A DNA stretch of 64,000 nt from the IMG/VR virus record IMGVR_UViG_2875713109_000001; one strand, written 5' to 3'. Below, in pieces: positions 1,870 to 6,411 of the stretch (position 1 is its first letter; each line of letters opens with the position of its first letter). Made by a program: the position numbers and the translations under genes. The notes below the pieces were generated by a model. That model saw nothing but the letters and a program-made list of their open reading frames with translations, was not told the DNA's origin and did no database searches. Origin of the DNA: a virus. Lineage: Duplodnaviria; Heunggongvirae; Uroviricota; Caudoviricetes.

Positions 1870-2460
<591 letters not shown>

Positions 2461-2516
2461 TTAACAGATTCTACGAGTTGTCATTTGTGACAGTATGCTC
2501 GCAATCGTAGTGATTA

Positions 2517-3056
2517 CTACCACCAACTGCTAGCTTTCTTCTCTCTAGCTTTTCCTTCGCTTTGCAGTAAATCTTTACTTCCTGTAGAAATATTTCTATT
2601 TGCATCAGCCTCAGACTGAATTACATCTGTCTTAGCTGCTCTCTCCTTCAACTCCTGCTCTATAAAATCGTTTTCTCGCTGGACACGAGCCGCTTTTGCT
2701 TGCAGTTCGAGTTTCATGCTTTCGAGTTGCAGCTTGCGAAGCTCATCCTCATAAGCTTGATCTCGCTTCTTGTCATTTGCTAGCTCGGCTTCTCGTTTCG
2801 CTCTACGTTCATTTTCTGCAGCAACACGCTGTTTTTCGCGTGCAGCAGCGGCAGATGCTGCTTTTTCTCTTCTAATACGTTCAGCTTGTGCTTGTTGGCG
2901 AATAAGTTCTTTTCTGGCATCCTCAGCTTGCTGCTCTTTAGCTCGCCCTTCATTTTCCGCTTGAGCAATAGCAGCAATTTGACTTTGCAACGAGTTAGCC
3001 AAGGCAGTGCCTACACTAAACGTAGAAAAGATTAGAAATAAAATAATTTTATTCAT
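2517..3056 (-). CDS. secreted coiled-coil protein (signal peptide, A/E/K/R/Q-rich repeats)
   Basis: N-terminal hydrophobic signal MNKIILFLIFSTFSVGTALA followed by low-complexity charged helical repeats; located next to immI where P1 carries superimmunity (sim) genes. Confidence 0.5.
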   Translation of the reverse strand: MNKIILFLIFSTFSVGTALANSLQSQIAAIAQAENEGRAKEQQAEDARKELIRQQAQAERIRREKAASAAAAREKQRVAAENERRAKREAELANDKKRDQAYEDELRKLQLESMKLELQAKAARVQRENDFIEQELKERAAKTDVIQSEADANRNISTGSKDLLQSEGKAREKKASSWW

Positions 3057-3059
3057 AAA

Positions 3060-3581
3060 TTATTTCTTTTCTGGACAAGTAGCATTTGGCTGAATTCGAG
3101 TTTCATTATCTTTAGTTGAAATAAGCACAGCAAGCCCCGTTGTAAACTGGCATGCTTTACCAACTTGAGTTGAAGTGAACACCTTAGTTCCTTCTTTATA
3201 AGTCAGTGAAACACCTTCAACAATTGTTTTATCACTAACCAAAGAACCAGCCGCTGCACCAAGAGCCGCACCACCAGTACCGCCAGCTACAGCACCCAGT
3301 GTCGATGTGCCTTTAACATTATAACCGGCAACGCCCCCAGCAACAGCTCCCAGTACCGCACCAAATGTCTGTGCCGCTTCTTTATTAGCTTTATTATCAA
3401 CTTTCACTTTAGCTGGAAGCACAGAGATAATATTGACTGTCTTTGTTTCCTGCTTCGAATTCAATTGAGCGGTATCATAAACATCGGCAGCATAATCAGC
3501 ACCGCTAGATTGACACCCAGAAAGAAGAATTGCAGATACAACAAGAGCGCATAAAGTATACTTTTTAGACATAAGAATCAT
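3060..3581 (-). CDS. lipoprotein with glycine-zipper segment
   Basis: Lipobox LLSGC after hydrophobic N-terminus (alternative ATG at 3572); G/A-rich GxxxG repeats (GAVLGAVAGGVAG...). Confidence 0.55.
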   Translation of the reverse strand: MILMSKKYTLCALVVSAILLSGCQSSGADYAADVYDTAQLNSKQETKTVNIISVLPAKVKVDNKANKEAAQTFGAVLGAVAGGVAGYNVKGTSTLGAVAGGTGGAALGAAAGSLVSDKTIVEGVSLTYKEGTKVFTSTQVGKACQFTTGLAVLISTKDNETRIQPNATCPEKK

Positions 3582-3862
3582 CCCAGAAAAACAAAAACCG
3601 GCGAGAAGTTACCACGAGAACGGAAAGTAAACAAGAATACTCCCATTGACTTATATCAAATAATCAACTTTTTATAAGCTATCCCTAACTTATTGTGTAT
3701 AGCTGAAAAGTCAGAGATAAGTTCACCATCTGCATTATTTCTTAAGTTAATAGTTTATTGCTAACTTAATTTATGTATCGACTATTGATATCCATCTTAA
3801 AGTAACAATATCCCTCTGCATTATTTTTCATCACAAATAATACATCTATTGCACTACGCTCA

Positions 3863-3879
3863 CCTGCTCTAATAAATTT
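3863..3879 (+). promoter_or_regulatory. C1 repressor operator-like site upstream of immI
   Basis: cctgctctaataaattt, 15/17 match to ATTGCTCTAATAAATTT motif that recurs at more than 15 places in the window. Confidence 0.6.
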
Positions 3880-4066
3880 GTATTTTTAAGTCGCGAATGC
3901 TATCTTTTCGCATCATATTGACCTTTTAATCGTTCAGGCTTATAGTTTCGCCGTCGTAGCAAATTCTGCGACCAGGTTTGACAGCCTGAATGATTGTGCG
4001 GACAACCGCAGATTTCCGATATTGCGGTATTTTTGTGTCCGTTAAACCGCGTTACGCCCAAATTAT

Positions 4067-4143
4067 GGTGGGGCGTGATGGGGAGGCTTCGGCCTGCTGG
4101 TTTCACAATCGCCAGTCTGTCAACCCTGTCACGTCCTGCCACC
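4067..4143 (+). ncRNA. c4: c4-like antisense regulatory RNA (about 77 nt)
   Basis: Structured segment closed by ggtgg/ccacc with UUCG hairpin; internal cacaatc and caacc are complementary to gattgtg and ggttg found both upstream (3972-3999) and at the icd RBS (4146-4183), the a/b target layout expected for c4. Confidence 0.45.
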
Positions 4144-4193
4144 TGTTTGACAGCGGGTAGCAGGTTGTTAAACCTGATTGTGAGGCCGTAACT

Positions 4194-4415
4194 ATGGTTA
4201 ATGCCAATCCTTGCGCACGCCCAGAATTCATCTGGCGTTTCTATTCCTGTAAAAAACACCACTATCACTTCGTTATCGCAGCAACTGAAGACGAAGCACG
4301 CTCTCAATTGCCTGATGGCCCCTGCATTTTTACTGCCCGTTTTTCAACTAACTCGCGCAATTCACTTAGTTACTGGAGCCTCCCCTTCTCTGCCGACGTT
4401 CAGGGGGGTTTATGA
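4194..4415 (+). CDS. icd: Icd-like small protein (73 aa)
   Basis: 73-aa ORF directly upstream of and overlapping (ATGA) the antirepressor gene; paralog at 50988-51209. Confidence 0.65.
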   Translation: MVNANPCARPEFIWRFYSCKKHHYHFVIAATEDEARSQLPDGPCIFTARFSTNSRNSLSYWSLPFSADVQGGL

Positions 4416-5446
4416 AAACACCTCTCGTCACCCGTAATGAAATAGCCGAAGCGATCGCCTTGCATACTGCCTGTATGCCGACACGGGAGATCCCCGGCGC
4501 AATTGCTAACTATTTCATGATAACCAGACGTTTTTATACCCGAACAGATAAGGCTGTGATCAACAGGCTACTGATAGCCGAGATCAGGGATTATTTGATT
4601 GAACAAGGACGTCTACGTTACGCAACAGTGGCAGCAGAAATGAGAAAGGAGGCACATAGAATGACCGGTAATAATTTAAATGTTGAAAAACCAGCACCTG
4701 TTGCTTCAGCTACGCCAGCACCAGCCCTGAATGTCATCCCCAACACCGGAGACACAATCGACAGCCAAACATTGTTGAAGATGGTCAATGAGGCACGGAA
4801 ATTATGTAGCGAAAAACCAGTTCGCAACAATGATTTCATTGCCAGAGTTAAGGATGAGCTTGAAGGAGAAACCTACGAAATTTTCGTAGGTCAAAAAAAC
4901 GGCGCAGAAATAGATATTATAACCATGACCTACAAACAAGCCCTGCGAGTTGCCGCGCGCGAGTCAAAAGCGGTCCGCCGTTCGCTGATCGACAAACTGG
5001 AAGAATTGCAGCAGGCAAACTCCCCTACCCCATCGATCCCCCAAACATTACCAGAAGCTCTACGCCTGGCTGCCGAGTTGGCAGAACAGAAAATGCAGTT
5101 GGAACAACAGCTGGTGGCCGCAGCCCCTAAAGTCGATTTTGCCGACCGGGTATCAGTGGCCAATGGAATCCTGATCGGGAACTTTGCAAAGGTCGTTGGA
5201 CTTAAGCAAAACGCCCTTTTCTCATGGTTGCGCCAGAACGGCATTCTCATGGCTTTTGGTGCGCGCAAAAACGTACCGCGCCAACAGTACATCAACGCCG
5301 GGTATTTCACAGTGAAAGAAGTGGTGCTGGATGATGAAAATGGCTACCAGATACGGCTGACGCCCCAATTAACGGGTAAAGGCCAGCAGTGGTTAACTCG
5401 CAAGCTACTTGATGCTGGTTTGTTAAAACCAGTAGCAATAGGTTAA
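4412..5446 (+). CDS. ant: antirepressor Ant (Rha-like middle region, KilA-C-type C-terminal domain)
   Basis: 344 aa; C-terminal about 130 aa shared with KilA (5611-6411) and with the 371-aa paralog at 51206-52321; immI position after c4-like RNA and icd. Confidence 0.75.
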   Translation: MKTPLVTRNEIAEAIALHTACMPTREIPGAIANYFMITRRFYTRTDKAVINRLLIAEIRDYLIEQGRLRYATVAAEMRKEAHRMTGNNLNVEKPAPVASATPAPALNVIPNTGDTIDSQTLLKMVNEARKLCSEKPVRNNDFIARVKDELEGETYEIFVGQKNGAEIDIITMTYKQALRVAARESKAVRRSLIDKLEELQQANSPTPSIPQTLPEALRLAAELAEQKMQLEQQLVAAAPKVDFADRVSVANGILIGNFAKVVGLKQNALFSWLRQNGILMAFGARKNVPRQQYINAGYFTVKEVVLDDENGYQIRLTPQLTGKGQQWLTRKLLDAGLLKPVAIG

Positions 5447-5458
5447 CAAAAGAAAAAA

Positions 5459-5484
5459 ACCTGCCAGCAAACTGGCAGGTTTCT
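5459..5484 (+). terminator. intrinsic terminator-like hairpin after ant
   Basis: acctgccag-caaa-ctggcaggt stem-loop followed by TTCT, preceded by A-run. Confidence 0.45.
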
Positions 5485-5524
5485 GAGCAGATCGTCCAAC
5501 CCGATCTGGATCGAGTCAGAAAAA

Positions 5525-5541
5525 TTTGCTCTAATAAATTT
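5525..5541 (+). promoter_or_regulatory. C1 operator-like site upstream of kilA-repL
   Basis: tttgctctaataaattt, 16/17 match to operator motif, about 70 bp upstream of kilA ATG. Confidence 0.65.
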
Positions 5542-5610
5542 CGTTTTCTAAGTGCAAAGAATCACCATTTCGAGCTGGTGATTGAAGGTTGATGCAAATT
5601 TGGAGAAAAA

Positions 5611-6411
5611 ATGCAACAAACATTCAATGCGGATATGAATATATCAAACCTTCATCAAAATGTCGATCCTTCAACCACTCTGCCTGTTATTTGTGGTGTT
5701 GAAATTACGACCGACCGCGCTGGCCGTTACAACCTTAATGCTCTACACAGAGCGAGCGGACTCGGTGCCCATAAAGCGCCAGCTCAATGGCTAAGAACGC
5801 TGTCAGCCAAACAGCTCATTGAAGAGCTTGAAAAAGAAACTATGCAGAATTGCATAGTTTCGTTCGAAGGCCGTGGCGGCGGCACTTTTGCACATGAATT
5901 GCTCGCAGTGGAGTACGCAGGTTGGATTTCTCCCGCGTTTCGGCTGAAGGTAAACCAGACATTTATCGACTATCGAGCTGGAAGATTACAACCTGCTATT
6001 CCGCAGAGCCTCCCAGAAGCTCTCCGTTTGGCTGCTGACCTGGCAGAGCAAAAGCAACGGCTGGAGCAAAAAATGCTGATGGATGCACCTAAAGTCGAAT
6101 TCGCCGAACGCGTTGCTACCGCCAGCGGGGTTCTAATCGGCAACTATGCCAAAGTGCTCGGCCTGGGCCAAAACTATCTCTTCACCTGGTTGCGTGATAA
6201 CGGAATTCTGATCGCAACCGGTGAACGCAGGAACGTCCCCAAACAAGAATACATATCCCGTGGGTATTTCACCCTTAAAGAAACCGTGATCGATACAAGC
6301 AATGGAAGCAGGATTTCTTTCACGACTCGTATAACCGGCAAAGGTCAGCAGTGGCTGATGAAGCGATTGCTTGATGCTGGTGTGCTGGTACCTGTCGCGG
6401 CAACGCGCTAA
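5611..6411 (+). CDS. kilA: KilA (KilA-N domain plus KilA-C domain)
   Basis: 266 aa as in P1 KilA; N-terminal KilA-N-like region; C-terminal domain homologous to Ant C-terminus; GGAGAAAAA SD. Confidence 0.8.
   Translation: MQQTFNADMNISNLHQNVDPSTTLPVICGVEITTDRAGRYNLNALHRASGLGAHKAPAQWLRTLSAKQLIEELEKETMQNCIVSFEGRGGGTFAHELLAVEYAGWISPAFRLKVNQTFIDYRAGRLQPAIPQSLPEALRLAADLAEQKQRLEQKMLMDAPKVEFAERVATASGVLIGNYAKVLGLGQNYLFTWLRDNGILIATGERRNVPKQEYISRGYFTLKETVIDTSNGSRISFTTRITGKGQQWLMKRLLDAGVLVPVAATR

Follow-up and report, generated by a model that had tools for sequence, protein, structure and literature searches.

What does a P1-like phage-plasmid gain from the genes that it carries in the place where P1 keeps its superimmunity (sim) genes? 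The question is raised by the virus record IMGVR_UViG_2875713109_000001 of IMG/VR, a 64,000-nucleotide stretch of DNA (the window) that belongs to a P1/P7-type phage-plasmid and in which two co-oriented genes, for a lipoprotein and for a secreted helical protein, lie divergently from the immunity region immI. An earlier reading of the bare sequence (the original prediction) had proposed these genes as a candidate superinfection-exclusion pair at the sim site. Judged by its homologies, the pair is a diverged mobile paralogue of the chromosomal yfgH-yfgI operon of Escherichia coli, with a lipoprotein of the SlyB class, and it occupies an exchangeable cassette.

Over positions 2437-3900 the DNA of the window is 99.0-99.5% identical to P7, SJ46, RCS47, JL22 and phi456, whereas classical P1 matches over just 36 bases, at the C1 operator, and both encoded proteins are 100% identical to the P7 products Upf50.5 and Upf50.0. 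The P7 record AF503408 labels them an "outer membrane lipoprotein of unknown function" (upf50.5) and a "membrane protein of unknown function" (upf50.0), and notes a similarity to E. coli for both. In E. coli K-12 the counterpart of the lipoprotein is YfgH (b2505, 172 amino acids), with 67% identity over the full length (E = 6e-73), and that of the helical protein is YfgI (b2506, 179 amino acids), which is of equal length and 47% identical (E = 9e-46). The genes yfgH and yfgI are adjacent in K-12, in the same order as the phage pair and with near-identical lengths, a direct homology that the original prediction had overlooked. The helical protein corresponds over its full length to the Pfam family DUF5384 (PF17358; E = 3e-43, 147.8 bits against a cut-off of 25), and its gene stands directly downstream of the lipoprotein gene, as do those of YfgI and of SrgL from Salmonella Typhi, with which it also shares the C-terminal motif of the family. 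All family-invariant residues are retained in the lipoprotein, namely Cys23 (invariant in 44 homologues), the zipper glycines and the Cys144/Cys169 pair. This protein is 73-77% identical to enterobacterial homologues from outside E. coli, as against 66-68% to E. coli's own YfgH, and was therefore not copied from the host gene in recent times. It further differs from YfgH in the location of its gene, in the sim slot of a P1/P7-type phage-plasmid, and in having an unrelated upstream region: a comparison of the region upstream of the phage pair with that of chromosomal yfgH found nothing shared.

Both open reading frames (ORFs) are present on the minus strand where the original prediction had placed them, and the lipobox and the glycine zipper that it had read in the first of the two are likewise there. 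The lipobox, LSGC, occupies residues 20-23, with Cys23 followed by Gln at position +2, and seven GxxxG motifs make up the zipper between residues 74 and 112. By sequence reading, an in-frame internal ATG at 3572 has a better Shine-Dalgarno spacing than the start of the ORF and may for this reason be the true start of the gene. The stop codon of the lipoprotein gene and the start of the helical-protein gene are separated by 3 nucleotides. A profile built from 44 sequences of the lipoprotein family matches SlyB (PDB 7OJF, chain 7ojf_A) nearly over the full length with an E-value of 1e-9, and a Foldseek search with the AlphaFold2 model of the lipoprotein ranks SlyB first (E = 1.5e-6, template modelling (TM) scores of 0.49/0.58). 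The model, the confidence of which is low, places helices 64-88 and 94-113 between strands at 45-62 and 118-163. Single-sequence searches of the PDB and an NCBIfam search of the proteins returned noise only, and the match of the lipoprotein to Pfam family PF05433 stays below threshold (18.2 versus 24.2 bits). The features held in common with YfgH and SlyB (PDB 7OJF/7OJG) are the lipobox, the two-helix glycine zipper, the flanking strands, the C-terminal Cys pair and the size (173 amino acids versus 172 in YfgH); relative to YfgH, the turn of the zipper-helix hairpin is the most diverged part of the phage protein.

The second protein has a classical signal-peptidase I site (A-L-A/N) after residue 20, and composition analysis shows its mature part to be 41% charged, with an abundance of Ala, Glu, Arg, Gln and Lys. 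It is modelled by AlphaFold2 as one unbroken helix spanning residues 4-178, with a predicted local distance difference test score (pLDDT) of 87, and the mature chain of about 159 residues would measure about 24 nm if fully helical. The N-terminal two-thirds are devoid of a hydrophobic heptad stripe and contain many opposite-charge pairs at i/i+4, in the manner of a single-alpha-helix spacer, and heptad analysis finds residues ~92-146 to be amphipathic. What is conserved in DUF5384 is the C-terminal motif TDVIQSEADANRN..G...GKA....SWW, the N-terminal charged spacer being poorly conserved. The signal peptide and the charged helix of the original prediction are therefore real, and the helical "repeats" that it described find little support.

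The location of the pair, suggested earlier to be that of the sim genes, is exactly so. In alignments with P1 and P7, the homology to P1 on the left-hand side runs up to about 2489, and on the right-hand side it begins again with the C1 operator, near 3863; the P1 record has simC-simB-simA in this same interval, between the late promoter LPsit (before pmgC) and the operator Oc4, and a cassette of 1.37 kb is thus swapped for the roughly 1.5-kb sim cassette of P1. The divergent layout relative to immI and the AT-rich region in between (3582-3900, with 31-36% GC versus ~47% in the flanks) had also been recognized correctly. Membership in the Sim family by sequence is rejected: alignment with SimC yielded scraps of 10-30 residues, with BLASTP E-values of 0.044 (over 30 residues) and 5.0, and a by-eye comparison of the translations with SimA and SimB found nothing. 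Since P1 plates just as well after knock-down of each sim gene by CRISPR interference (PMC10695390), the cargo of the slot is non-essential. The pair and SimA/SimB/SimC are alike in slot, orientation, secreted products and this dispensability; they differ in gene number and sizes and have no detectable sequence similarity, and an exclusion phenotype is on record for Sim only.

The sim slot has been described as one of eight variable regions in P1-like phage-plasmids (PMC9603915). We found at least four kinds of occupant, every product of which has a signal peptide or a membrane anchor: simABC (141 PLSDB records); the P7-type pair (163 of the 205 PLSDB records that hold the lipoprotein); an allele of ~84% protein identity that has a membrane-anchored DUF559 protein after it (20 PLSDB records); and a 212-amino-acid "long SimA" together with a SimC-like protein of 35% identity (NZ_CP027575.1, 2758-4208 of the extracted locus).

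Two of these occupants have features of their own. The N-terminal stretch of the 212-amino-acid protein is identical to the portion of P1 SimA that begins at the internal Met of SimA, and the 53-amino-acid P1 simA, at 4413-4571 of the extracted P1 locus, may be a truncated remnant of a longer gene. On the IncY P1-like plasmid NZ_AP027551.1, the 84% allele is followed by a gene for a 419-amino-acid protein (4389-5648 of the extracted locus), which has membrane helices at its N-terminus, a repeat rich in proline and lysine, and an endonuclease-like domain, DUF559; the gene is bounded by a second LPsit-like inverted repeat and may be a defence gene.

Table 1. Features of the yfgH-yfgI-like cassette and of the adjoining immI region (positions in the window; PWM, position weight matrix)
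Feature	Position	Strand	Basis and remarks
Late promoter LPsit, left-hand junction; drives downstream tail genes, not the pair	2468-2487	minus	Coordinates transferred from P7 annotation; sequence conserved with P1 to ~2489
Replaceable cassette in the P1 sim slot	2490-3862 (about)	none	Alignments with P1 and P7; 1.37 kb
yfgI-like gene, secreted all-helical protein	2517-3056	minus	ORF, 179 amino acids; identical to P7 upf50.0 product; Pfam DUF5384
yfgH-like gene, outer-membrane lipoprotein	3060-3581	minus	ORF, 173 amino acids; protein identical to P7 upf50.5 product
Candidate weak sigma-70 promoter for the pair	3606-3634	minus	-35 TTGTTT, 17-nt spacer, extended -10 TGgTAACTT; best minus-strand PWM match
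Two 15-nt direct repeats, CC(A/C)TCTGCATTATTT	3726-3740, 3812-3826	none	Repeat search; 86-bp spacing
C1 operator of the c4-icd-ant operon, right-hand cassette junction	3863-3879	plus	ATTGCTCTAATAAATTT match with 2 mismatches; P7 annotation Op(c4)
immI promoters	3878-3906, 3918-3946	plus	Strong PWM scores
c4 RNA	4061-4146		Rfam, 68 bits

The P7-type cassette is widespread. At an identity of at least 99% it was found in 164 of 5426 complete E. coli genomes, with 169 of its 173 places on plasmids. The lipoprotein and DUF5384 genes are adjacent on the K-12 chromosome and also on a Vibrio parahaemolyticus plasmid with conjugation genes, where they stand beside a toxin-antitoxin pair, in a transposase-rich genomic island, and on a Salmonella contig of ~102 kb with tail-fibre, endolysin-like, exonuclease and Rep genes (PHROGs). 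This contig is probably another phage-plasmid; a megablast comparison of it with the phage collection gave no match. In a further case the pair adjoins the tail-fibre end of a prophage, its membership in which is not established, and the pair of S. Typhi is known as srgIL (PMC11619404). Phage TL-2011b (JQ011317.1, 41360-43105) was considered as an additional phage carrier and rejected, as the record runs into the host yfgG-yfgH-yfgI flank; at its end the lysis genes are followed, in host DNA, by a yfgG-sized ORF of 192 nucleotides and by yfgH-like and yfgI-like genes. A yfgH-like gene of 75% identity occurs on the small mobilisable ColE1-type plasmid NZ_CP073991.1 (7.5 kb; 3118-5669 region), where its neighbours are a phosphoethanolamine transferase gene and an IS1 element, and both gene products would act on the envelope; the gene table for these small ColE1-type plasmids, which is incomplete, lists the lipoprotein gene.

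Between the two P1-like alleles the ratio of nonsynonymous to synonymous substitution rates (dN/dS) is 0.06 in the lipoprotein gene and 0.04 in its partner, the helical-protein gene, even though synonymous sites are near saturation (proportion of synonymous differences, pS, 0.64-0.74). These values indicate strong purifying selection on the pair, without the signature of an arms race.

With the identity, homology, position, conservation and mobile-element spread of the pair in hand, its function can be approached through the chromosomal counterpart. Deletion of yfgH causes sensitivity to sodium dodecyl sulfate and ethylenediaminetetraacetic acid, a higher permeability of the outer membrane and loss of outer-membrane proteins; mild overexpression of YfgH rescues depletion of BamA or LptD; and YfgH co-purifies with BamA, LptD, OmpF/C/A, LamB and TonB-dependent receptors (bioRxiv 10.64898/2025.12.22.696046). 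The same preprint finds YfgH at ~7 copies per cell, nearly silent unless the outer membrane is damaged, and the role that it describes is stabilisation of the outer membrane under stress, not phage exclusion. On this background we give about an even chance to the proposal that the function for which the pair is selected is the remodelling or stabilisation of the outer membrane by a mobile yfgH-yfgI cargo module.

By homology, the phage lipoprotein would be acylated at Cys23 and sorted by the Lol pathway to the outer membrane, since the +2 residue is Gln and not Asp, and its glycine-zipper helical hairpin would insert into the membrane. It may then oligomerise, in the way of SlyB and as proposed for YfgH, into rings around outer-membrane proteins or patches of lipid; ring formation by the phage protein is a step that we infer by analogy. 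The secreted helical rod, with its variable spacer rich in Glu, Arg, Lys and Ala and its conserved amphipathic C-terminal half, presumably acts in the periplasm as the partner of the lipoprotein. To judge by its regulatory layout, the pair is probably made in the lysogen and would be controlled in a manner unlike the chromosomal copy, which is almost silent in the absence of stress. The outcome would be a lysogenic conversion of the outer membrane, in which an added dose of an envelope stabiliser, encoded by the prophage and under different control, benefits the carrier cell. The pair may in this way alter access to outer-membrane proteins, and a block to incoming phage is a possible consequence.

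In the regulatory layout, LPsit lies downstream of the pair (P7 annotation), and no C1-operator-like sequence that could control the pair is present within 3582-3862. A strict consensus scan found no minus-strand promoter, and no strong sigma-70 promoter is predicted there; of the candidate listed in Table 1, the 84% allele retains the two hexamers and the TG, and its spacer is diverged. Because the pair lies outside the late operon and the sole candidate promoter is weak and free of overlap with a C1 operator, production in the lysogen is probable, and we infer from the sequence that expression of the pair is independent of the lytic programme and would start from a promoter that is weak or needs an activator. 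In S. Typhi, srgIL is activated by SdiA and acyl-homoserine lactone (AHL; PMC11619404); inspection by eye of the region upstream of the phage pair for an SdiA box (AAAAG-N8-GAAAA) found none. The 15-nucleotide direct repeats are absent from the 84% allele. A partial inverted copy of the repeat is present at 3835-3847, also upstream of the lipoprotein gene.

Several points weigh against a membrane-stabilising cargo module. The candidate promoter has a PWM score of 9.3, where shuffled sequence gives a median best score of 10.7, and is therefore not significant by itself. The AlphaFold2 monomer of the lipoprotein, a strand, a two-helix hairpin and a beta domain, has a pLDDT of 56.5, and the SlyB-like rings predicted for YfgH are called unproven by the preprint itself (10.64898/2025.12.22.696046). 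For YfgI, sensitivity to nalidixic acid comes from a single screen (PMC3536626), and a literature search returned no paper mentioning upf50.0, upf50.5 or DUF5384. Most E. coli already have yfgHI, and a benefit from a second copy is an assumption. Finally, the known occupant of the slot, Sim, has an exclusion function, so that position favours exclusion over housekeeping.

Exclusion can be conceived in two ways. The pair could be a non-homologous replacement of SimABC that blocks entry of P1-type DNA after adsorption, as the slot is exactly that of simABC and a known variable region (PMC9603915), all its proteins have a signal peptide or membrane anchor (SimA/B/C, the long SimA with its SimC-like companion, the yfgHI-like pair with or without the DUF559 protein), Sim itself is thought to stop DNA injection (PMC8546580), and PLSDB holds Sim-type and yfgHI-type cassettes at about the same frequency (141 versus 205 records), as expected of exchangeable alleles. 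The evidence on the other side begins with the lack of similarity to Sim proteins and with PADLOC, in which neither protein found a match at E-values up to 1. The receptor of P1 is lipopolysaccharide and not an outer-membrane protein, so that a shielding of proteins offers no obvious route to exclusion, and the dN/dS of ~0.05 gives no sign of an arms race. P1 and P7 are, furthermore, described as heteroimmune (PMC6906374), which by definition, as we read it, means that each grows on lysogens of the other, and the cassette at prophage dosage would therefore not block P1. An additional argument, that K-12 has yfgHI and is sensitive to P1 all the same, carries little weight, since cells grown in broth barely express the chromosomal copy. 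We regard a Sim-like block to DNA entry as quite improbable. The other way would be the shielding of receptors in the manner of TraT, with SlyB-like rings that hide phage or colicin receptors, hinder mating or confer serum resistance. The proteins with which YfgH co-purifies, OmpF/C/A, LamB, BamA, LptD and TonB-dependent receptors (10.64898/2025.12.22.696046), would suit such a role, and TraT is itself a decameric outer-membrane lipoprotein ring of chromosomal origin that plasmids have co-opted several times for surface exclusion (PMC11733297) and that, according to a report cited in PMC10433841, interferes with OmpA-dependent phages. When aligned with F TraT by hhalign, the lipoprotein reaches a probability of 85.7% (E = 5.4e-6) over 72 columns that cover the glycine-rich zipper and the following strands, and many members of its family have precomputed Pfam TraT matches. 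Its own score for Pfam TraT (PF05818) is nevertheless under the family cut-off (23.1 versus 31 bits), Foldseek comparisons with TraT structures are not significant (E = 0.09-0.19, TM ~0.2), TraT is absent from the profile search of PDB sequences, and a glycine-rich zipper can inflate local scores of this kind. Membership in the TraT family is thus rejected, a local profile similarity remaining. With IncF TraT (PDB 9FS5, 9FSM, 9E2V) the phage protein has in common that it would be a lipoprotein of the outer membrane with a membrane segment that is helical and rich in glycine, and that it is chromosomal in origin and was taken up by mobile elements, rings having been seen for TraT; it differs in size, 173 amino acids against the 243-244 of TraT with its large extracellular ring domain, and TraT is without a DUF5384-like partner gene. 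We consider shielding of this type unlikely. Homology gives phage exclusion by the pair no support, and it is made plausible by position and by the TraT precedent; the idea keeps some weight because the slot otherwise holds Sim and all its alternative occupants are envelope proteins, and because TraT shows a chromosomal ring-forming lipoprotein co-opted for exclusion (PMC11733297). In its boldest form, to which we assign a low probability, a temperate phage has co-opted a ring lipoprotein of the SlyB/YfgH type, with a helical partner of periplasmic length, as a new exclusion device that functionally replaces Sim. By analogy with the co-option of TraT, the caging of outer-membrane proteins or lipid patches would then deny their use or crossing to incoming phages, colicins and mating partners, a picture that we hold to be doubtful.

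Two further readings were weighed. An outer-membrane lipoprotein together with a periplasmic helix of ~24 nm has a superficial likeness to Rz/Rz1, which would make the genes a spanin-like pair, or one that controls outer-membrane integrity or the timing of lysis. The helical protein, however, has a cleavable A-L-A/N signal rather than an inner-membrane anchor, and the genes, upstream of LPsit, are not part of the late operon and are remote from the lysis genes; the homologues are normal genes of the chromosome, and cells that lose them have a weaker outer membrane, and P1 has sim in this place, the knock-down of which leaves plating unchanged (PMC10695390). Identity with a spanin is rejected on the type of signal peptide, the location outside the late and lysis operons and the protective chromosomal orthologues, and a role in the lytic cycle seems very unlikely. 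We consider it very unlikely, too, that the cassette is a selectively neutral passenger acquired from a bacterial chromosome: AT-rich variable regions of P1-like elements do gather foreign DNA (PMC9603915), and the GC content of the cassette is below that of the flanks, but 165 E. coli records and 163 PLSDB plasmids have both ORFs intact, with an identity of at least 99%, the second allele keeps a dN/dS of ~0.05 with synonymous sites nearly saturated, and unrelated mobile elements have acquired the module in independent events.

The genes themselves are not new, having been annotated in P7 for about two decades with their E. coli similarity noted at the time. What is added here is their identity as paralogues of yfgH/yfgI with a lipoprotein of the SlyB class, the exact boundaries of the cassette, the multi-allelic nature of the slot, the data on selection and mobility, and a single-helix model for DUF5384. 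The cassette is common, occurring in ~3% of complete E. coli genomes, nearly always on P1-like phage-plasmids, elements that spread resistance genes as well, and in public records the genes are still "hypothetical" or mislabelled; recognition as a mobile yfgH-yfgI gives them a testable function. It also connects phage biology with the membrane-stabilising lipoproteins of the SlyB/YfgH class, a class described only recently, points to YfgI/DUF5384 as an obligate partner of YfgH-type lipoproteins, and provides a natural allelic pair, sim versus yfgHI, with which to ask what the "superimmunity" slot of P1 is selected for. The significance would rise if an exclusion phenotype were found.

Among the mislabelled records, the "DNA methyltransferase" attached to the lipoprotein (PHROG 1277 and several RefSeq phage records; NC_050152, NC_031129, NC_042128 and NC_019445) is a misannotation and is rejected because the protein is a 173-amino-acid lipoprotein without a methyltransferase motif. 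In phage phi456 (OR339795) the pair bears the labels "minor tail protein" and "tail tip protein", which are propagated misannotations.

On the other side of the divergent region, the c4 RNA is followed by icd/ant, kilA and repL. The window contains 15 C1-operator-like sites (ATTGCTCTAATAAATTT, at most 3 mismatches; for example at 5525, 20695, 24217, 40219 and 53764) against an expectation of 0.4, a number that fits a complete immunity network of the P1 type. The c4 immunity determinant itself (3975-4185, comprising the targets a1b1, the c4 RNA at 4061-4146 and the targets a2b2) is a coherent P1/P7 hybrid: by alignment and Rfam, in all three places one element is of the P1 type (TTGACAG / CTGTCAA) and the other of the P7 type (GATTGTG / CACAATC), so that on its sequence the determinant could be either a third immI specificity or a recombinant of P1 and P7.

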